44,373 bases of DNA, taken from positions 1 to 44,373 of the IMG/VR virus record IMGVR_UViG_3300045988_033491; one strand, written 5' to 3'. Below are positions 1,283 through 41,583 of this stretch, piece after piece. Source of the DNA: a virus. A model generated the notes under the pieces. The model did not search any database and was not told where the DNA came from. It saw only the letters and a program-made list of their open reading frames with translations. The position numbers were made by a program, and so were the translations under genes. Each line of letters begins with the position of its first letter. The first letter of the stretch is position 1.

Positions 1283-2638
1283 CTATATTTCCGGGTTATC
1301 GTTCAACAACTTTTTCTTATTATCGTTTTTGGGCTTTTTAGGCTCTTTTACGGGCTTTTGTTCCTTTTCCGGTGCAACCGCCCGTTTCGTTGTCTTTCGT
1401 GGCGTGGCGGGCTTATTTTCCGCCTCCTTTGCCGTTTTCCCGGCACGTTTGACAATCTTTGCTTTCTTAACCTCCGGTTCCGGGGTTGCCTCCGGTGCGT
1501 CCGCATCCGCTTTGACCTTATCGGCGGCGTCCGTGGTTTCGTCCGGCGTCGCCTCTTTGGGGGCTTTTGTCTTAATCAATTCAGACAACGACAACGATAT
1601 TACATTGTTCGTTAAGTCCGGGGCATCGTCCAACACAACCAAACCATTAACCGCCGTAAACGTGTTATCCCGCTTTTCGTCCTCAATTGCGGCAATCTCC
1701 AACAAATACGGGATTTTCTTAATATTGGGGCTATCGGTTTGCTCTTTCAAATTATACGACGGACGTTTGCGCCAATCTTTCGGGCTGAAATTGAAAATAC
1801 GGGTTACGGGGAATTTCTCAAAATTAACGTTCCACATATCCCGGTACATTCCCAATTGTATTTCCGCTTCCTCATAAAAGCCCTTGCGCCCGCTTTTGAA
1901 ATCGACGATTGCGTTAATACGTTCGTCGCCGCCAATCTTTGCCAACATAGTACACGGGCAATCAATCATTCCGGCATACTTGTAATACGGGTGTACCAAC
2001 GCAATTTCCACGGCTAACGGTCTAACGTCATAATCCAAAACGAATTGAGCAAACGCCAATACGTCCTTTTTCAAATCGTCAGCATAATAAATAAAATCAT
2101 CCGGCAACCTGTAAACCTCAATATATTCTTTTAGTTTACCTTTTAGCCCGTCCAAATCGTAAGCCCGGTTAATCAATAATTCCTCAAATGCGGCGTGCAT
2201 AAATGTACCATACGCCGCCCGTTCGCCCTTATAACGTTCGCTTTCCTCAATCCCTTTGTTTGCAATCCAATTGATTAGAAACGGGGATTTTGGTAACGTT
2301 TGGGACAATATGGTTGTTACCGACGGAAAAAACTCCGGTTCCCCGTTTTCGTCGTATCGGTAATAATATCGGTGTCCCTTACTGTTTAACTGCCAAACCT
2401 TATACGGCGGTTCAATCAACGTTTTTTCGTCGAAAAACATTGCTGTCATTTCCTCAACCGTCATGCCCGGCACAATCTCAAATACTCCGGTCGGTTGTTC
2501 CGGTTCCATTTCCACAAACGGGGGGATTATATGTTGTTGTTCCTCGTTTACCTCCGGGAACATTTCCGGGGCAATATTGCCAACGGTTCCCGCAACCTCT
2601 TTTACCGGGTCGCCCGGTTTATCGCTCTTTGTTCTCAT
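1283..2638 (-). CDS. PD-(D/E)XK (Cas4/RecB-like) exonuclease with a K/P/E/A-rich low-complexity C-terminal tail.
   Basis: 451 aa. Motifs SVTTIL, GTFMHAAFE, MIDCP...IVDFKSG and EEAEIQLGMY fit the PD-(D/E)XK phage exonuclease layout. The last ~110 aa are lysine/proline/alanine rich. Confidence 0.7.
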   Translation of the reverse strand: MRTKSDKPGDPVKEVAGTVGNIAPEMFPEVNEEQQHIIPPFVEMEPEQPTGVFEIVPGMTVEEMTAMFFDEKTLIEPPYKVWQLNSKGHRYYYRYDENGEPEFFPSVTTILSQTLPKSPFLINWIANKGIEESERYKGERAAYGTFMHAAFEELLINRAYDLDGLKGKLKEYIEVYRLPDDFIYYADDLKKDVLAFAQFVLDYDVRPLAVEIALVHPYYKYAGMIDCPCTMLAKIGGDERINAIVDFKSGRKGFYEEAEIQLGMYRDMWNVNFEKFPVTRIFNFSPKDWRKRPSYNLKEQTDSPNIKKIPYLLEIAAIEDEKRDNTFTAVNGLVVLDDAPDLTNNVISLSLSELIKTKAPKEATPDETTDAADKVKADADAPEATPEPEVKKAKIVKRAGKTAKEAENKPATPRKTTKRAVAPEKEQKPVKEPKKPKNDNKKKLLNDNPEI

Positions 2639-32322: not shown

Positions 32323-32819
32323 TTTTCAACCTGTGTTAATTCGTAACTTGCTTTATCCATAACCATTGCCACGGGATACGGCAAAATACAATCTTTTGAG
32401 TAAACCAAATTGTAAATCCCCAATTGCCCCTTAACAGGAAATTCGATAACCCGGCGGGGGTTCCGCATCAACCACCCGTACCCCTTTGTTATCGCCTTGC
32501 GTTTCTCCGAGGGTATCCGGGTTTGCGCCCAATCAAACGGCGTAAATTCCGACACGGGTTTAATGTCGTATAACTCGACCAACCCCAATGTAACCCCGTT
32601 TTCGTATCCCGGCAAATCCGGGTTCTTTGAGGAACAAATTAACAGGTCGCCCCGGTAATTTGTGTACTTACTCCGTACCTCAATAGATTTTTCCGCAAAA
32701 ACAAATCCGCCGTCCTCAAACGCCGCCGTTACCAACTGCGTTGCATACGGGTTTTTTACGGTTAATGCCCGCCAACGGTCGTGTTGTGCGGGGTTATAAT
32801 CTTTGTTATTAAACTGCAT
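32319..32819 (-). CDS. ASCH (PUA-like fold) domain protein.
   Basis: 166 aa. ALTVKNPYATQLV...KSIEVRSKYTNYRGDLLICSS matches the usual ASCH N-terminal pattern. It overlaps the radical-SAM gene by 11 nt. Confidence 0.65.
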   Translation of the reverse strand: MQFNNKDYNPAQHDRWRALTVKNPYATQLVTAAFEDGGFVFAEKSIEVRSKYTNYRGDLLICSSKNPDLPGYENGVTLGLVELYDIKPVSEFTPFDWAQTRIPSEKRKAITKGYGWLMRNPRRVIEFPVKGQLGIYNLVYSKDCILPYPVAMVMDKASYELTQVEK

Positions 32820-33663
32820 TTTCGTTGTTGTTTTCGTTAAACAAATCGTAATTCGCCGGGACGCAATAACCGGGCAATGTTTCCCGGTCTAACCCCGCCG
32901 CATTAACAATACTATCTTTCCAATATATCCGGGGTTTCCCGTCGTGGGTATTCCAATAATCGGCGACGTCGTAATAAAACCCCAACGTTTCCTTTTTGGT
33001 GTATTTTTGTCCGCTCTGCAACCCTATCTTAAACAGGTCAACGAACGGGTACGACAACGCAATTACAGACAACGCCCGGTCGAACATTCCCGCCGGGATT
33101 GGTTCCACGCTTACAAAGGTACGGAACCCGTGCCGTTTTGCCCTTGCGATTGCTGTTATACGCATCCGGTTTGGGCTTGCTTTAGGTTCCAATTCATCGC
33201 ACCCGGTCAACGTTGCACCAATCGCAATGCGGGATAAATCCCAACCCTCGGACGCCTCGGCAAAATCAATAAACCCGTTTATCCCCTCGGCGCATTTGCT
33301 CAATATCTTAACCGGGACGCCGTGGCGTTGGCATACGCCGACCGCTTGGCGGGTCAACCGTTCCGTTTCCGGCAACAACGGGTCGGTCGTGAATGAAAAG
33401 AACAACCCGGTTTTCTGCAATTCCTCCTTATGCTTCAACAATTCGTTCTTAAAAATGTCGATTGCAAACGGCGGTTCCCGCAACGTCTTTTTCAACTCCG
33501 GGCGATTGCCGCCCAATACTTTTGCGCCACGACCTTTGCGTAAAAAACAGTACGTACAACCATTTGAACAACCGACAAAGAAATTGGCGGCGTTCTCGGC
33601 GTATTCCGCCGCTTTACCCTTTGGGCTATAAATAACCCGTCCGTTTATCGCTCCCATACTCAT
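32809..33663 (-). CDS. Radical SAM protein (SplB/COG1533-like).
   Basis: 284 aa. The CX3CX2C motif GCSNGCTYCF is at residues 31-40 (nt 33547-33570). FFSFTTDP and the overall size fit the DNA-photolyase-like radical SAM group. Confidence 0.7.
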   Translation of the reverse strand: MSMGAINGRVIYSPKGKAAEYAENAANFFVGCSNGCTYCFLRKGRGAKVLGGNRPELKKTLREPPFAIDIFKNELLKHKEELQKTGLFFSFTTDPLLPETERLTRQAVGVCQRHGVPVKILSKCAEGINGFIDFAEASEGWDLSRIAIGATLTGCDELEPKASPNRMRITAIARAKRHGFRTFVSVEPIPAGMFDRALSVIALSYPFVDLFKIGLQSGQKYTKKETLGFYYDVADYWNTHDGKPRIYWKDSIVNAAGLDRETLPGYCVPANYDLFNENNNENAV

Positions 33664-33668
33664 ACAGA

Positions 33669-34085
33669 TTAAAACGGTAAATCGTCTGTTTCGTTTGGTG
33701 CGGGTGCATCCGGGGCGGGCGGCGGCGGGGCTTGCGTTCCGGCTCCGGTCGCTTTCGGGGTCAACATTTCCATATCGGTTGCGACTATTTCGGTAATATA
33801 CCGTTTTACGCCGTTGGCATCGTCATAACTCCGGGTTCTCAATTCCCCCTCAATATACAGTTTATCCCCCTTATGGACGTATTGTTGGGCGACCTTTGCC
33901 AACCCGTTTTGCAACACTATATTATGCCATTCGGTACGCTCCGGGATTTGCCGCCCGTCTTTCGTTGTAAACGCCCGTTTTGTGGTTGCCAACGTGAATT
34001 GCGCCACACAACCGCCGTTGTCGAAAGTCTTAAAATCGGGGTCTTTTCCTGTATTCCCCAATAACGTAACTTTGTTAACACTCAT
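33669..34085 (-). CDS. ssb: Single-stranded DNA-binding protein.
   Basis: 138 aa. OB-fold pattern VNKVTLLGNTGKDPD...TEWHNIVL...GDKLYIEGELRTRSY, a Pro/Ala linker and an acidic tail ending DDLPF. Confidence 0.9.
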   Translation of the reverse strand: MSVNKVTLLGNTGKDPDFKTFDNGGCVAQFTLATTKRAFTTKDGRQIPERTEWHNIVLQNGLAKVAQQYVHKGDKLYIEGELRTRSYDDANGVKRYITEIVATDMEMLTPKATGAGTQAPPPPAPDAPAPNETDDLPF

Positions 34086-36259: not shown

Positions 36260-37147
36260 TTATAAATCTTCCTCAACGTATCGTTTTAACTCGGCTTGGA
36301 ATTGTTCCCGTTCGTCGTCCTCCTGATTAATCAATTCGTCGTACAAATCATTGTCGAATATTTCGCCCAACGCATCGTCCAACATGGCAATCAATTTTTC
36401 GGGCTTAACGGCGTCTAACTCGACCTGTCCCAATCCGTCCCAATTTGCCGTCCGGCTATCGGTTTCCTTTGCCGGGGCGGGCGGCAAACCCCATTCGACA
36501 ACCTGTTGTTCCATTAACGCAATACGGCGTATTTCCACGCCATAAACGCCGAACTTTTCCAAATTTTCGCCGATTGACCGGGGTATGTCCTCGCCGGACG
36601 GGTCGTAATCTCCGAAATATAAGATTATCGCCTGTTTGCCGTTGCACTGTTGTTCTCGCAACCGTTCGGATAACTCATATAGGAAAGTTAACGACGGGTA
36701 GCCCTTGCAAGCCCCAACCGCAACGTCCCATTTGCGGCACGGTTTCGCAAAAACGCCCTCCAACGCTTTCTTTTCAATAAGTATTTCGGGATAATAGGGT
36801 TGATTTTCCCAACGGTTTTTGCTGTATGAATGCATCCACGCCCGAACCTGTTGTTTTGCTTCGTCCTGTTTGTCGTCCAAATTGGTTGCGTCGGCTTTTG
36901 TTTCGCCACACATTGCCCTATCTCGGTCGCTGAACGCCTCAAAATCAACCCGACCGTCCCACCGGGCAACCTCCATTGCGGCGACAACACGTTTGTAATG
37001 CTGTAACGTGTTTGTCATTCCCCGGCTAACTAATTGATAATGCAACGCACGGATTGTCAATATACCGTTTTCGTAATTACTTAACACGTCAATTGATTGT
37101 TCAATAATCCAATCCCGTGTAAATTCGTCTTTAATACGCTTTGCCAT
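36260..37147 (-). CDS. TopoVIA/Spo11-like protein (winged-helix 5Y-CAP-like plus Toprim).
   Basis: 295 aa. TIRALHYQLVS (candidate catalytic Tyr region), EILIEKKALEGVF (Toprim Glu) and ILYFGDYDPSGEDI (Toprim DxD). Confidence 0.55.
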   Translation of the reverse strand: MAKRIKDEFTRDWIIEQSIDVLSNYENGILTIRALHYQLVSRGMTNTLQHYKRVVAAMEVARWDGRVDFEAFSDRDRAMCGETKADATNLDDKQDEAKQQVRAWMHSYSKNRWENQPYYPEILIEKKALEGVFAKPCRKWDVAVGACKGYPSLTFLYELSERLREQQCNGKQAIILYFGDYDPSGEDIPRSIGENLEKFGVYGVEIRRIALMEQQVVEWGLPPAPAKETDSRTANWDGLGQVELDAVKPEKLIAMLDDALGEIFDNDLYDELINQEDDEREQFQAELKRYVEEDL

Positions 37148-38090: not shown

Positions 38091-38336
38091 TTACTGATTA
38101 TCTGTGCGGAATTTATCCCGCTTTTTCTCTAACTCCAATACGTCCCGGTTTTCCTCGACATATTCCCGGACGTCCTTACGGCAAAACGGTTGGTCGGCTA
38201 ACCAAAGTAAATGCCAATACGGTACGTCCTCCATTTTTTCGCCCTTAAATTTGCCTTGCGGCATCGGGCTATTATCGTCTAACTGCATACTAAAATAGTC
38301 TTTTTTGCCCGTCGTCGTTGGGCGTTTGTTCCACAT
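38091..38336 (-). CDS. DUF3820-like small protein.
   Basis: MPQGKFKGEKMEDVPYWHLLWL resembles the DUF3820 signature. The alternative ATG at 38288 would remove the 47-nt overlap with the upstream gene. Confidence 0.55.
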   Translation of the reverse strand: MWNKRPTTTGKKDYFSMQLDDNSPMPQGKFKGEKMEDVPYWHLLWLADQPFCRKDVREYVEENRDVLELEKKRDKFRTDNQ

Positions 38337-38477: not shown

Positions 38478-38909
38478 CTATAACGTTCGGGGGTCGTCAA
38501 TAAACGTGTTGTATTCCTCGGCGGCTAACTGTTTGAGCGCTTCGATATGTTCGATTAACTCGGCGTTGCTTAATTCCGCCACGGTGCGCAATTCGTGGGA
38601 ATATTCCCCCGTTTCCTCGTTGACCCGTTCGACGTACATAACCGGGGAAAATTCCCGCAAACGACGTTCGGTTTGTTCCTCTGTCAATCGTTCGCCCGCC
38701 TCCCAAATTGCGTGTTTGAACGTTGGCACAACATAGTTAAAATAATAGCCTTTCAAAGCCTCGGACGAACCGGGCGACGCTACAATGAACCGGGCAATTA
38801 CACGGGAACCCCTCCAACCTTTGAAAAACTCGTTTAATTCTCCCATGTACATTGCCAATCCGCCGTTATTGTTTATCGTCCCCGTCGCTGTTATTTCTCG
38901 CTTTTTCAT
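38478..38909 (-). CDS. Hypothetical protein (143 aa), possibly NinB/Orf-like.
   Basis: ATG at 38909 gives a 44-nt overlap with the upstream gene; alternative ATGs are at 38852 and 38846. The size and context suggest NinB, but I see no motif-level support. Confidence 0.5.
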   Translation of the reverse strand: MKKREITATGTINNNGGLAMYMGELNEFFKGWRGSRVIARFIVASPGSSEALKGYYFNYVVPTFKHAIWEAGERLTEEQTERRLREFSPVMYVERVNEETGEYSHELRTVAELSNAELIEHIEALKQLAAEEYNTFIDDPRTL

Positions 38910-40092
38910 CGGCTAATAACTTTTTCATTGTTTCGTTAAATGCTCCCATTCCGACGGTACGGATAAACGCCCGTTCGCTCGACGAATACCCGGTTGCGAC
39001 CTTATCCAAAACGGACGCAAACAATACGGTAAATTTTCCCGGCTCCCAATCCCCGGCGTTGTGCATCCGGTCGATAACGTGCGCCCGCAATCGTTCGTTC
39101 ACTTTTGCGGCTTTTTTCCGGGCGTTTTCCCGGTCGTTCCAAAGGCTTGTTAATTGGGTTTGCAGATTGGCGAAAAACAACGGCATTTTCAGAACGTCCG
39201 CAATACTCAAATCCGCCACGGGAACCGGGACGGCGGCGATTGCTTCGTTGGCTTTCTTTTGGGCTTTCCCGCCCTTTTTCATTGCCTCCGTTAATTCCTT
39301 TGTTGCCTCTGCAATCTCATTAACCCCGGCGGCGGTTCCTTTGTTAATACCATAACCGAACAATGCAAAATCCCCTTTTGCGGGGTCATTGGGGAATATC
39401 TCGGCGAAACGGTCGGTTATCTCAATAGCGGTGCGCAAATCCGGTGTCCGGCGTGTTGTCAATCCCAACCGTATTGCCTGTTTATGTACGTGGGTATCTA
39501 ACGGGATTATCAAATTGCGGGGGTCGCATACGTCCCACAATCCAAAGTCAACCGGGGAACTTTTACGGCACATCCAACGCAAAAACAGACACAACCGTTT
39601 GCAAGCGGATTGCGTTTCAAAATCCGGGATACCATTAACGGAACCGAACAACGATTGCAACGTTGCCAATGCCGTTTCCCCGTTCGTTTCGTGCGCTTTC
39701 TTTATTGCCGCTTCCATGCTTTCCGCCGACGTGTAAACATCGTACAAACGGGCGCAAAGGTCGGCAAAATCTCCATACGTAAACGTTCGGTAAAAACTTT
39801 CCTTACTGCCTTTGTATTGTTCCCATTCCGGGGCGGCTCCGGGCGCAACGTTGTTGCCGACAATGTAATGATACGGTTCGCCCTTGAAAATTTCCCGGTC
39901 TATAAAATCCGCCTTTTTGATAATCTGTTTACGTGCGCCCCACGCAATCCACGCCGTAACAAATGCGCTTATCTCAATGTTTACCCGGCTATCGTAACGG
40001 TGCGGAATTTGCACCGGGTCGGATTTAATAAACTCGGCGGTTTCGTATTGTTCCGCCCAACGCTTCAAATTTTCGTTCAATGTAAATGCCAT
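38866..40092 (-). CDS. DUF2400/TIGR02757-like protein fused to a ~140-aa C-terminal extension.
   Basis: 408 aa. FIKSDPVQIPHRY, ACKRLCLFLRWMCR, GLWD...LIIPLDTHVH and DPAKGDFALFGYGI match my recollection of the TIGR02757 family. Residues ~270-408 have no counterpart that I know. Confidence 0.55.
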   Translation of the reverse strand: MAFTLNENLKRWAEQYETAEFIKSDPVQIPHRYDSRVNIEISAFVTAWIAWGARKQIIKKADFIDREIFKGEPYHYIVGNNVAPGAAPEWEQYKGSKESFYRTFTYGDFADLCARLYDVYTSAESMEAAIKKAHETNGETALATLQSLFGSVNGIPDFETQSACKRLCLFLRWMCRKSSPVDFGLWDVCDPRNLIIPLDTHVHKQAIRLGLTTRRTPDLRTAIEITDRFAEIFPNDPAKGDFALFGYGINKGTAAGVNEIAEATKELTEAMKKGGKAQKKANEAIAAVPVPVADLSIADVLKMPLFFANLQTQLTSLWNDRENARKKAAKVNERLRAHVIDRMHNAGDWEPGKFTVLFASVLDKVATGYSSSERAFIRTVGMGAFNETMKKLLADEKARNNSDGDDKQ

Positions 40093-40109
40093 TGTTTTTG
40101 CTGTATTAA

Positions 40110-40130
40110 GGGGAACGGGAACCCGTCCCC
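40110..40130 (-). terminator. GC-rich stem-loop after the ATPase stop; putative attenuator.
   Basis: Minus-sense GGGGGACGGGTTCCCGTTCCCC followed by TTAATAC. Confidence 0.35.
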
Positions 40131-40137
40131 CGGTTAA

Positions 40138-41583
40138 TTATTCGTTTTCGCTGTATTCCTCAATTACTAAATCGTCCTGTCCTCGCTTGACTTCCTCAAT
40201 AAAGCCTTGATAACCCTCTTTTCGGGCTAATTCGATAAGCGATTGCAAACGTTTTGCGCCCAAACTTTCGCCCCTCGCAATGCGGAATACCTTAACGGTC
40301 GGATTGCTCGCAATGATAAGTTTTGCGGCGACCTCCATAATTTGACTATCGGATACTTTCCCGGCAACAAACGGTACGCCGTTCAACTCCAACCCGTCGT
40401 CGGTAAATGTCAACCCGTCGATTGGTAATTTGGATTTGGCAATAAGGTTTTCCCGTTCTTTCAACAAATCGGACAACTTTTTGTCGTGGGTTTGTGCCGT
40501 CTTTTCGGCGGCATCCTTTTGCTTTTTCTTTGCCAAATAATCCACAACCAACGTATTAATCCGGTTGTGTTCCTCGGCTTGTTTGAGGCGTTCCGCCGTA
40601 TCCAAATTTTCGGGGTTGTTTTCCTCATATTTCGCCAACCAATCGGCGGCGTTCTTTTTACGGGTTTCGTAATCAGCTTTGTCGGCTTCGATTTGCGCCA
40701 ATGTTTCGTCGTATTTATCGGCGGCGGCTTTGGCGGCGGCTTTGCTCTGTTTTTTGGCGGTATCCAATGCCTTTTTTGCCTCGGCAACAATACGGTCGTA
40801 TTCCGCTTGCGCATCGGCTTCGGCTTTGGCGGCGGCGGTAATCTCTGTATTCTTGGTTTCCTCGGCGGCTTTTATACGACCGGGGATTGCCTCCAATTGT
40901 TCCGTCCGTGTCTGCAATGCGGTACGTACTGTTTTTGCCTTTTCAATCAACCGGGCGTTCTCGTTTTGTTCCTCCATTAAGTCGGCAATGTCGATTTTGT
41001 CGGCATACGTTTTCACGTCGCCCGGCTTCAACTGTTTTTCGGCGGCGGCGCAAATAGTCGTGTATGTCTTAACCTCGGCGTTGGCGTCTTTTCGTTTGTC
41101 CTTAACGGTCGTAACCTCGGCGTCTATTTCGTCGATACGTTTTTGCACATCAACAGGCAACAACGCCCGGACGTACTGAACTTGTTTGCGGCGACCCTCG
41201 GCGGTTTCCGACCAACGGGAAAACTCCACGGCGTCAAAATCGGTATATCCGAAAACCTTTTGCAACATACTTACGTTATCCGACCGCATCCCGGTTGTTT
41301 TTTGTTTGATTGATAACGTACCCCGTGGGTTGGCTTTGGTAAATCGCAATTCAACGTCGTATTCCTCGCCGTCGTCGCCTACAACCATTTTTGCAAACCC
41401 TTTTTCCTCGCCATTACGCAAAACGGCGTCCCGGTTCCCGGTCAATAACGCCCCGATTGCCTTTAATAGCGTGGATTTTCCCAACTCATTGTCCCCGGTA
41501 ATGAAATATACATTACCCTCAAAATCTGCGTTGAACTCCTTAATTACTTGGAAATTCGACAATTCTAACTTTTTTATAATCAT
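40138..41583 (-). CDS. SMC/Rad50/SbcC-like ATPase with a central coiled coil.
   Basis: 481 aa. N-terminal LELSNFQVIKEF...FITGDNELGKSTLLKAIG (Walker A), ~250 aa of A/K/E-rich coiled coil, and a C-terminal signature/Walker-B-like region. Confidence 0.7.
   Translation of the reverse strand: MIIKKLELSNFQVIKEFNADFEGNVYFITGDNELGKSTLLKAIGALLTGNRDAVLRNGEEKGFAKMVVGDDGEEYDVELRFTKANPRGTLSIKQKTTGMRSDNVSMLQKVFGYTDFDAVEFSRWSETAEGRRKQVQYVRALLPVDVQKRIDEIDAEVTTVKDKRKDANAEVKTYTTICAAAEKQLKPGDVKTYADKIDIADLMEEQNENARLIEKAKTVRTALQTRTEQLEAIPGRIKAAEETKNTEITAAAKAEADAQAEYDRIVAEAKKALDTAKKQSKAAAKAAADKYDETLAQIEADKADYETRKKNAADWLAKYEENNPENLDTAERLKQAEEHNRINTLVVDYLAKKKQKDAAEKTAQTHDKKLSDLLKERENLIAKSKLPIDGLTFTDDGLELNGVPFVAGKVSDSQIMEVAAKLIIASNPTVKVFRIARGESLGAKRLQSLIELARKEGYQGFIEEVKRGQDDLVIEEYSENE

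Follow-up and report, generated by a model that had tools for sequence, protein, structure and literature searches.

A phage DUF2400 protein resembling HhH-GPD glycosylases, fused to a small resident module beside an SMC-like ATPase gene

The window analysed here is the whole of IMG/VR virus record IMGVR_UViG_3300045988_033491 (positions 1 to 44,373), a compact gut phage genome in which every recognisable gene lies on the minus strand and which belongs to the PDS1-like group of Bacteroidales siphophages, with 82-86% nucleotide identity to Parabacteroides phage PDS1, Alistipes phage AS73P1 and the Bacteroides phages C1_85S2P and BKO1-3. Our subject is two co-oriented genes embedded in its replication/recombination block, one encoding an SMC-like ATPase of 481 amino acids (aa) and the other a 408-aa protein with a DUF2400/TIGR02757 domain (38866..40092, minus strand). 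The explanation that we favour, at a probability of roughly 60%, is that the 408-aa protein is a two-part fusion of a divergent HhH-GPD-type (helix-hairpin-helix) domain and an orphan phage module resident at this position, and that it is optional but selected cargo rather than the nuclease partner of the ATPase. A preliminary description of this DNA had already marked the two open reading frames (ORFs), and both are present on the minus strand at exactly the coordinates it gave; the peptides that it quoted (ACKRLCLFLRWMCR, LIIPLDTHVH and DPAKGDFALFGYGI) are all found in the 408-aa protein.

The DUF2400 domain and its likeness to HhH-GPD glycosylases

The earlier assignment to DUF2400/TIGR02757 is borne out by full-length profile matches far above the curated cutoffs. 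PF09674 (DUF2400) matches aa 25-249 over profile positions 1-224 of 225 (E 2.1e-63, 214.9 bits against a cutoff of 25), and NCBIfam TIGR02757 matches aa 21-251 over positions 1-229 of 229 (218.4 bits against a cutoff of 139.2). The domain covers aa 1-252 (39337..40092, minus strand), and hidden Markov models, Foldseek and profile alignments together predict for it a divergent fold of the HhH-GPD superfamily, like that of DNA glycosylases/AP lyases. All family-invariant residues are present (D25, P26, E40, R102, K165, R172, W173, R176, D182, G184, W186, P197, D199, D236, P237 and D241), and the conserved motifs specific to the family are an N-terminal DPxQFPHRY and an LRWMxR helix. An exhaustive representative search returned 2,562 DUF2400 clusters at E<=1e-3, from which we built a 107-sequence family alignment (A2), and a scan of the genome collection with a 16-sequence alignment gave 596 confirmed relatives, mostly Bacteroidota among the best 80, in agreement with the earlier view that the family is common there. 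Several abundant gut phage lineages commonly carry DUF2400 as well. Both A2 and a further alignment, A4, take the window protein as their reference.

The cellular members of the family are standalone proteins of about 230-270 aa, whereas the phage protein adds about 155 aa of linker and module and is encoded in a replication/recombination block. More than 120 protein clusters (at >=75% identity), mostly on contigs of about 44-45 kb, share the fusion architecture, and it is therefore not an assembly artefact. The DUF2400 domain is under purifying selection and is functional where present: the comparison of the window protein with 77 full-length fused ORFs from IMG/VR gave a median ratio of nonsynonymous to synonymous substitution rates (dN/dS) of 0.19 for this part, and K165 and D199 are both kept in 75 of the 77. 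PHROGs has no family for the 408-aa protein and PADLOC gave no match. Searching its sequence against PDB chains returned nothing meaningful, the only matches, with the 408-aa and module-profile queries, being chance ones to CFAP251, a cytotoxin and CagS (E 0.031).

The fold of the domain points to base-excision enzymes. When the AlphaFold2 (AF2) model of the 408-aa protein, which was based on A2 and has a mean predicted local distance difference test score (pLDDT) of 91.3, was compared at full length with the PDB by Foldseek, the best 17 matches were all HhH-GPD glycosylases, the kind of fold that the preliminary description had suggested. They comprise Ogg1 enzymes of bacteria, archaea and mammals, AGOG of Pyrococcus and EndoIII, among them MBOgg1 (probability 0.99), Pab- and Pfu-AGOG, h/mOGG1, CacOgg and EndoIII (target-normalised template-modelling score, TMt, 0.54), and their scores range over probabilities of 0.54-0.99, TMt values of 0.30-0.54 and E-values of 0.11-1.2, while later matches have probabilities of <=0.07. 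As these E-values are weak, independent tests were sought in Pfam and in the catalytic motif. At permissive thresholds, the HhH-GPD family PF00730 matches 20 of the 107 family members (best E 8.3e-4) and is the sole recurrent secondary Pfam family, every other one matching at most 2 of the 107; the window protein itself has no PF00730 match.

The catalytic motif gave the same relationship. HMMER aligns 'iiPLDthvlrqarelgl' of the family profile with 'AIPVDTHVHRIANRLGW' of an EndoIII in the PDB, and hhalign against Escherichia coli Nth (endonuclease III) finds the same register (E 0.012-0.023), in which D199, within IPLDTHV (codon 39496..39498, minus strand), stands opposite the catalytic D138 of the 'PVDTHV' motif. 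D199 is invariant in A4 and at least 90% conserved in A2. A candidate for the catalytic, Schiff-base-forming lysine is K165 (codon 39598..39600, minus strand), which is at least 90% conserved in both alignments, follows a loop as the first residue of helix 165-175 and precedes D199 by 34 residues. This spacing is close to that of AGOG, in which the catalytic pairs K140/D172 and K142/D174 are 32 residues apart and are functionally equivalent to K249/D268 of hOGG1 (PMC9638937).

On the model and the profile alignments, DUF2400 looks like a divergent HhH-GPD branch nearest AGOG, Ogg and EndoIII (PF00730; 7oue, 1xg7, 4ejy, 1orn). Its predicted fold appears to be of the same all-helical, two-lobed class, its 'hPhDTHV' Asp motif aligns with that of EndoIII, and they are its sole credible fold matches in the PDB. 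The genes are alike in context too, since cellular DUF2400 genes stand alone with no conserved neighbour, and standalone genes without a conserved neighbour are typical of base-excision repair glycosylases. DUF2400 differs from these enzymes in its own DPxQFPHRY and LRWMxR motifs, in a sequence without evident iron-sulfur cluster cysteines and, in the window, in the fusion to an orphan phage module.

Several points weigh against this relationship. No Foldseek match to the PDB reached E<=1e-3 (the best being 0.11), the target-normalised TM scores are modest (0.37-0.54), and the query was the full-length model and not the domain alone. The sequence links to HhH-GPD proteins are singly marginal or below significance, with E-values from 8e-4 to 0.19 and an hhalign probability of 2-4% (single sequence). 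The hhalign alignments of DUF2400 profiles with E. coli Nth cover the Asp motif alone and never the HhH lysine, and as no alignment puts K165 opposite a known catalytic lysine, we infer its equivalence from conservation and spacing. A canonical G-h-G hairpin is not obvious by eye, a divergent fused homologue (P0126) lacks both the lysine and the THV motif, and we found no biochemical or functional report for DUF2400, TIGR02757 or PF09674 in the literature searched. The homologue in PDS1 and C1_85S2P carries the label 'N-glycosylase/DNA lysase' in GenBank, given by independent annotators, and the glycosylase reading is therefore not new.

Two side observations concern the family at large. Six other members of 449-610 aa (P0147, P0168, P0169, P0172, P0220 and P0244) carry C-terminal extensions whose 200-360 aa match no Pfam family and do not resemble the phage module; DUF2400 has thus been joined to more than one kind of unknown domain. 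Archaeoglobus profundus pleomorphic provirus 1 (BK065154.1, 5696-5977) has a partial DUF2400-like match (38% identity, E 8e-8) over aa 149-244, the region of K165 and D199, and this is of interest since the nearest structural relatives, the AGOG enzymes, are archaeal.

The resident module and the variable slot

The C-terminal region of the 408-aa protein is helical (model helices 255-402) and forms a separate domain, as the preliminary description had it. It begins with a linker, aa 253-292 (39217..39336, minus strand), predicted as two lower-confidence helices (pLDDT 59-82) and variable in length and sequence, the fused homologues being 361-433 aa long. The linker is followed by an orphan helical module of about 110 aa (aa 293-408; 38869..39216, minus strand), whose dN/dS among the 77 fused ORFs is 0.34. 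The earlier account of this extension as novel has to be given up, since it belongs to a resident family of small phage proteins. In BKO1-3, gp6 (118 aa) is 74.6% identical to aa 290-407, lacks DUF2400 and lies between the ATPase gene and the next gene, and three related genomes (L004-L006) have the ATPase, then a 116-aa module and then a 143-aa gene. A search with the extension only gave 83 clusters, most of them standalone proteins of about 116-119 aa on contigs of 36-46 kb, and in BFVD the module resembles small standalone siphovirus proteins (TM 0.82-0.94, identity 22-38%). It has no Pfam or PDB match, and 20 module homologues gave no PHROG match at E<=1. One metagenomic protein of 289 aa (P0213) has the module after a segment that to the eye resembles a TonB-like membrane anchor at the N-terminus, joined to a linker rich in Pro and Glu; this is either a real chimera or an artefact of assembly or of a prophage junction.

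A survey of 75 IMG/VR loci with the ATPase at >=76% identity gave a clear picture of what is constant at this position. The gene downstream, which encodes a 143-aa NinB-like protein (phrog_23774; 38478..38909, minus strand in the window), is present in all 75 and is thus the constant companion of the ATPase, while the module is present in 71 and DUF2400 in 53 (51 with the full module fused and 2 with a half-deleted module). Twenty of the loci have the module only and two have neither, so that DUF2400 is missing from 22, and the ATPase is 90-94% identical between loci with and without it. The NinB-like protein is 70% identical in Elizabethkingia phage TCUEAP2. Its label comes solely from the GenBank annotations of PDS1 and BKO1-3, and we could not confirm it, as the protein has no match to the NinB Pfam family even at E<=10 and no PDB sequence match.

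The slot between the ATPase and the NinB-like gene is hypervariable. The module may stand there alone, carry DUF2400 or a radical-SAM domain, or precede a PAPS-reductase gene; in other phages the slot contains a small ORF of unrelated sequence or is empty. The radical-SAM form is a 437-aa ORF (L182:9491-10804) with that domain on the C-terminal side of the module (CX3CX2C, CPMRCKFC; PF04055, E 6.8e-5). In L176 (8553-9440), and also in L177, a 295-aa gene of the PAPS-reductase family (PF01507, E 8.7e-18; PP-loop, SGGKDS) follows a standalone module, and in one further arrangement a 72-aa ORF follows the module.

Whatever the slot holds, the ORF preceding the NinB-like gene always ends in '...KKRDNSNGDD', be it the module, the PAPS-reductase (L176) or the radical-SAM fusion (L182). 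The reason is that its last 44 nucleotides (nt) overlap the start of the NinB-like gene. In the window this dual-coding overlap lies at 38866..38909 (minus strand; tail ...KARNNSDGDDKQ), the same 44-nt overlap is found in PDS1, L004-L006 and another related phage locus (L254), and the synonymous substitution rate falls to 0.16 within it. The conserved acidic tail is therefore a by-product of dual coding and not a feature of the module.

In-frame deletion scars that remove DUF2400 and keep the module were found in three cases: in P0317 residues ~1-20 of DUF2400 are joined to its last ~20, followed by the module, and in P0316 and L217 its first ~19-24 residues are joined to the module or its linker. 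In the module tree, fused and unfused forms are interleaved, with fused forms on several deep branches, which suggests that the glycosylase-like domain has been repeatedly lost or exchanged. Against the reading of the module as a resident protein of its own, its fusion to DUF2400 is kept in homologues of 39-53% identity and also in contexts without the ATPase, so that it may instead be a genuine functional part of the enzyme.

The wider distribution of the two genes is in line with what the survey found. The ATPase occurs without DUF2400 in TCUEAP2, where an unrelated 112-aa ORF lies between it and the NinB-like gene, in PD691P3, where the NinB-like gene (35% identity) follows directly, in P2559S, and in Arthrobacter phages, where it lies among exonuclease, hypothetical and SSB genes. 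The possibility that the short ORFs behind the ATPase in TCUEAP2, PD691P3 and P2559S are divergent modules was considered and rejected (hhalign E 0.13-0.61). Conversely, DUF2400 occurs without the ATPase in LoVEphage, BI-TP1 and PV4-TP1, among methyltransferase, radical-SAM and PAPS-reductase genes, in C3_41T2LP and beside an SNF2 helicase on a short phage-like contig, and none of the phage records with DUF2400 alone is among the 62 records matching the ATPase. No ATPase was found near DUF2400 in 79 of 80 genome loci, whether on a cellular chromosome or in a prophage, and the single exception, with the ATPase or module present, is a PDS1-like contig binned into a metagenome-assembled genome. 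Among 72 cellular and prophage loci we found no conserved operon partner of DUF2400; the largest cluster of neighbours, a mannitol dehydrogenase, is present in 9 of the 72, and the remaining neighbours are unrelated housekeeping genes. In the deeply divergent fused homologues, the upstream gene is not the ATPase in P0126 and P0155, and the order ATPase, fusion, NinB-like gene is kept in P0138. On the survey and this wider distribution, the stable pairs are the ATPase and its NinB-like neighbour on the one hand and DUF2400 and the module on the other, and DUF2400 is not linked to the ATPase.

In some PDS1-like phages without DUF2400, a methyltransferase lies a few genes downstream (L005/L006:6795-7622 and L001:6751-7365), which is of the C5 type (PF00145) or, in BKO1-3, of phrog_757. 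An anticorrelation between DUF2400 and a nearby DNA methyltransferase could not be established, as just 2 of the 75 surveyed loci are methyltransferase-positive, both without DUF2400, which is too few.

Possible roles of the fused protein

D199 at the position of the superfamily's catalytic aspartate, preceded at a distance of 34 residues by a near-invariant K165, makes base flipping and excision together with apurinic/apyrimidinic (AP) lyase activity the most likely chemistry. The DUF2400 domain (aa ~1-252) would flip and excise a damaged or modified base by means of D199 and the candidate lysine, and excision would be followed by AP-lyase nicking through a Schiff base on K165. The module (aa ~293-408) would be the small orphan protein that normally fills the slot, and it may tether the DUF2400 enzyme, and others, to the surrounding replication and recombination proteins. 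The hypervariability of the slot suggests that the glycosylase-like domain is optional but selected cargo and not the nuclease partner of the ATPase. As to the purpose of such cargo, the housekeeping contexts of cellular DUF2400 genes favour a role in repair, while the presence/absence polymorphism and the PAPS-reductase and radical-SAM cargo of the same slot favour a role in conflict or modification.

That the same chemistry serves phage-host or phage-phage conflict and not repair is the alternative that survives best, although we regard it as somewhat unlikely. The protein might, for example, excise a modified base in host or competitor DNA, process a modification of the phage DNA or, as the preliminary description had also considered, counter a defence system, with the module as a common adaptor for interchangeable DNA-modifying enzymes. 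Such a role would fit the variation in DUF2400 presence at the very short distances seen between the ATPase loci, the alternative filling of the slot by a PAPS-reductase-family gene or a radical-SAM fusion, and the company of DNA methyltransferase, radical-SAM and PAPS-reductase genes that DUF2400 keeps in LoVEphage and BI-TP1. It would also have precedent, as defence against modified phage DNA is known to involve glycosylases and domains of the Ogg/EndoIII-like kind (PMC12191111). However, PADLOC does not recognise the protein, the cellular genes show no defence-island signature in their housekeeping contexts, the window holds no sign of phage DNA modification, the nearest structural relatives are repair enzymes, and the adaptor role given to the module is pure conjecture.

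A bolder version, which we think improbable, makes the module a docking adaptor that tethers interchangeable base-processing enzymes, either an active glycosylase of the HhH-GPD type on its N-terminal side or a radical-SAM enzyme on its C-terminal side, to the replication/recombination machinery of the ATPase and the NinB-like protein. The slot would then be a plug-in site for counter-defence or DNA-modification cargo, and, as a corollary, the cellular DUF2400 proteins would be unrecognised, widespread bifunctional glycosylases of Bacteroidota and other anaerobes.

It is very unlikely, in our estimate, that DUF2400 binds or flips a non-canonical base without excising it and serves the module or neighbouring proteins as a sensor or DNA-binding domain. 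The model for this would be the END defence nucleases, in which inactivated EndoIII/Ogg-like domains are sensors of modified bases (PMC12191111), and both the inferred status of K165 and the persistence of P0126 after loss of its lysine and THV motif agree with it. The window protein does resemble the END nucleases and the Brig1 defence glycosylase in having an Ogg/EndoIII-like domain in a phage-host context, fused to another module. In contrast to the window gene, which is phage-encoded, keeps the candidate catalytic pair and is joined to a small helical protein, the END proteins are host-encoded, have lost their catalytic residues and are fused to PLD nucleases (PMC12191111). The (near-)invariance of D199 and K165 in the family, and their retention under a dN/dS of 0.19, likewise speak against this reading.

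The proposal of the preliminary description, that the DUF2400-module protein is a nuclease or glycosylase partner of the ATPase and replaces Mre11/SbcD in a recombination machine, fares worst. It could draw on gene order, as the two genes are adjacent and co-oriented with 45 bp between them, an order that most PDS1-like phages keep, as does a divergent 44-kb phage (ATPase 49% and DUF2400 39% identical). It could draw also on the statement that no Mre11/SbcD gene is present, which stands in so far as no Mre11, SbcD or Metallophos Pfam family matched at E<=0.01 in the 52 minus-strand ORFs scanned, the plus-strand ORFs being unscanned. The two genes nevertheless prove to be unlinked in related phages, and we give this proposal hardly any credence: it is largely refuted by the ATPase loci and phages without DUF2400, by DUF2400 without the ATPase in several phage lineages and nearly all genome loci, and by fused homologues behind another upstream gene, while the invariant neighbour of the ATPase is the NinB-like gene and the recombination genes include other nucleases (a DEDDh exonuclease, a weak PD-(D/E)XK match, a RuvC-like resolvase and an HNH protein).

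The SMC-like ATPase and other genes of the window

The ATPase gene (40138..41583, minus strand) is a constant core gene. Its product has Pfam matches to AAA_23, AAA_15 and AAA_29 and a match to phrog_1499 (E 1.5e-55), a family of unknown function. The AF2 model (pLDDT 85) has an N-lobe, an antiparallel coiled coil of about 240 aa in which helices 144-383 fold back, and a C-lobe, and of the 105 PDB matches that Foldseek gave at E<=1e-3 an SMC head ranks first (3.3e-12). These matches span the heads of SMC, Rad50/SbcC, condensin, Smc5/6, MukB, JetC, Lamassu LmuB, RecF and RecN, whereas by sequence the similarity to PDB proteins (Rad50, RecF and RecN) is confined to the N-terminal ~100 aa; RecN and RecF are among the best matches by both sequence and fold.

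An alignment of 68 homologues shows where the protein departs from its relatives. The Walker A motif GDNELGKST (aa 30-38; 41470..41496, minus strand) is invariant, as is Q134. The C-terminal lobe (aa 387-476; 40156-40425, minus strand) is very strongly conserved, with A436, G438-E439-S440-L441-G442, Q459-G-F, E463, R467 and Q469 invariant. Its motif block SDSQIMEVAAKLIIASNPTVKVFRIARGESLGA (40255..40353, minus strand) holds a degenerate signature and the Walker-B position: the signature reads VS(D/T)SQ and not LSGGQ/E, and the Walker-B position reads KVFRIA(R/Q)GESLG, with the strand ending without an Asp and with E439 invariant. The C-lobe has no candidate for the H-loop His, there being no His after residue 366, and no CxxC zinc hook was found in the coiled coil of any of the 68 homologues, the window protein having a single Cys (C178). 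A C-lobe that is so conserved and yet lacks the Walker-B Asp, the H-loop His and a canonical LSGGQ suggests, from its sequence, either an unusual catalytic arrangement or a protein that only binds ATP.

The earlier label of a Rad50/SbcC-type ATPase can thus be kept in part. The Walker A motif, the coiled coil and the C-lobe are there, but the protein is SMC-like only in the broad sense and the label is too specific. With Rad50/SbcC-Mre11/SbcD, and with T4 gp46/gp47, it shares the topology in which an antiparallel coiled coil joins an N-lobe to a C-lobe; its fold matches include Rad50/SbcC heads, and its N-terminal ~100 aa are similar to Rad50 in sequence. It differs from Rad50/SbcC in lacking the CxxC hook, LSGGE, the Walker-B Asp-Glu at the strand end and the H-loop His, in that no Mre11/SbcD gene was found, and in that SMC, LmuB, JetC, RecF and RecN heads score equally well or better. 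Compared with RecF/RecN-type recombination ATPases and their mediators, it is similarly short, SMC-like and without a hinge, it always occurs with the small protein annotated by others as NinB, and the gene block around it encodes SSB, a DEDDh exonuclease and a RuvC-like resolvase; lambda Orf/NinB is a substitute for RecFOR. It differs from them in its non-canonical C-lobe motifs, and the tools used did not confirm the small protein as NinB. The PADLOC matches of the ATPase (AriA, PtuA, GajA, LmuB and JetC) are weak and centred on Walker A, and we did not accept them as evidence of a defence system.

Among the remaining genes, all on the minus strand, a 295-aa protein (36260-37147) matches phrog_6247, 'DNA topoisomerase' (E 7e-63); its conservation reaches to Elizabethkingia phage TCUEAP2, and in PDS1 two ORFs divide the sequence between them. 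Its GDYDPSGEDI motif is, in our view, similar to the acidic Toprim motif of proteins such as TopoVI-A, Spo11 and JetD. Neither Pfam nor PADLOC nor a sequence search of the PDB gave a match for the protein, which might serve the ATPase as a nuclease or primase-like companion. A 451-aa 'exonuclease' (1283..2638) was considered as a hidden Mre11 and rejected, its weak match being to PD-(D/E)XK instead. It is followed by a Gp3-like protein (548-1279; PF18897, E 9e-33), a family annotated as recombination-directionality-factor-like; the pair recurs in PDS1, BKO1-3 and a related phage locus (L255), and circular permutation of the genome would place it directly upstream of the replication block. A 284-aa protein (32809-33663) with a weak radical-SAM match (PF04055, E 2.1e-5, below the gathering score) adjoins the SSB gene (33669-34085) and is kept in PDS1, as 'radical SAM enzyme', and in L004-L006. 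An 81-aa protein (38091-38336) has a marginal match to QSregVF_b (PF12843, E 1.3e-4), and the annotation of its PDS1 homologue as a quorum-sensing-regulated virulence factor is probably an over-annotation.

In conclusion, there is no categorically new system among these findings, and the ATPase is a secondary lead by virtue of a conserved, non-canonical C-lobe without Walker-B Asp or H-loop His and of a coiled coil without a hook. Should DUF2400 prove to be an active glycosylase of the HhH-GPD type, a biochemical role open to testing would be given to a widespread family of unknown function, with K165 and D199 as immediate targets for mutagenesis. The slot between the ATPase and the NinB-like gene would be a hotspot in which enzymes that act on nucleic-acid bases are swapped, and it may be useful for mining gut phages for accessory and counter-defence genes.

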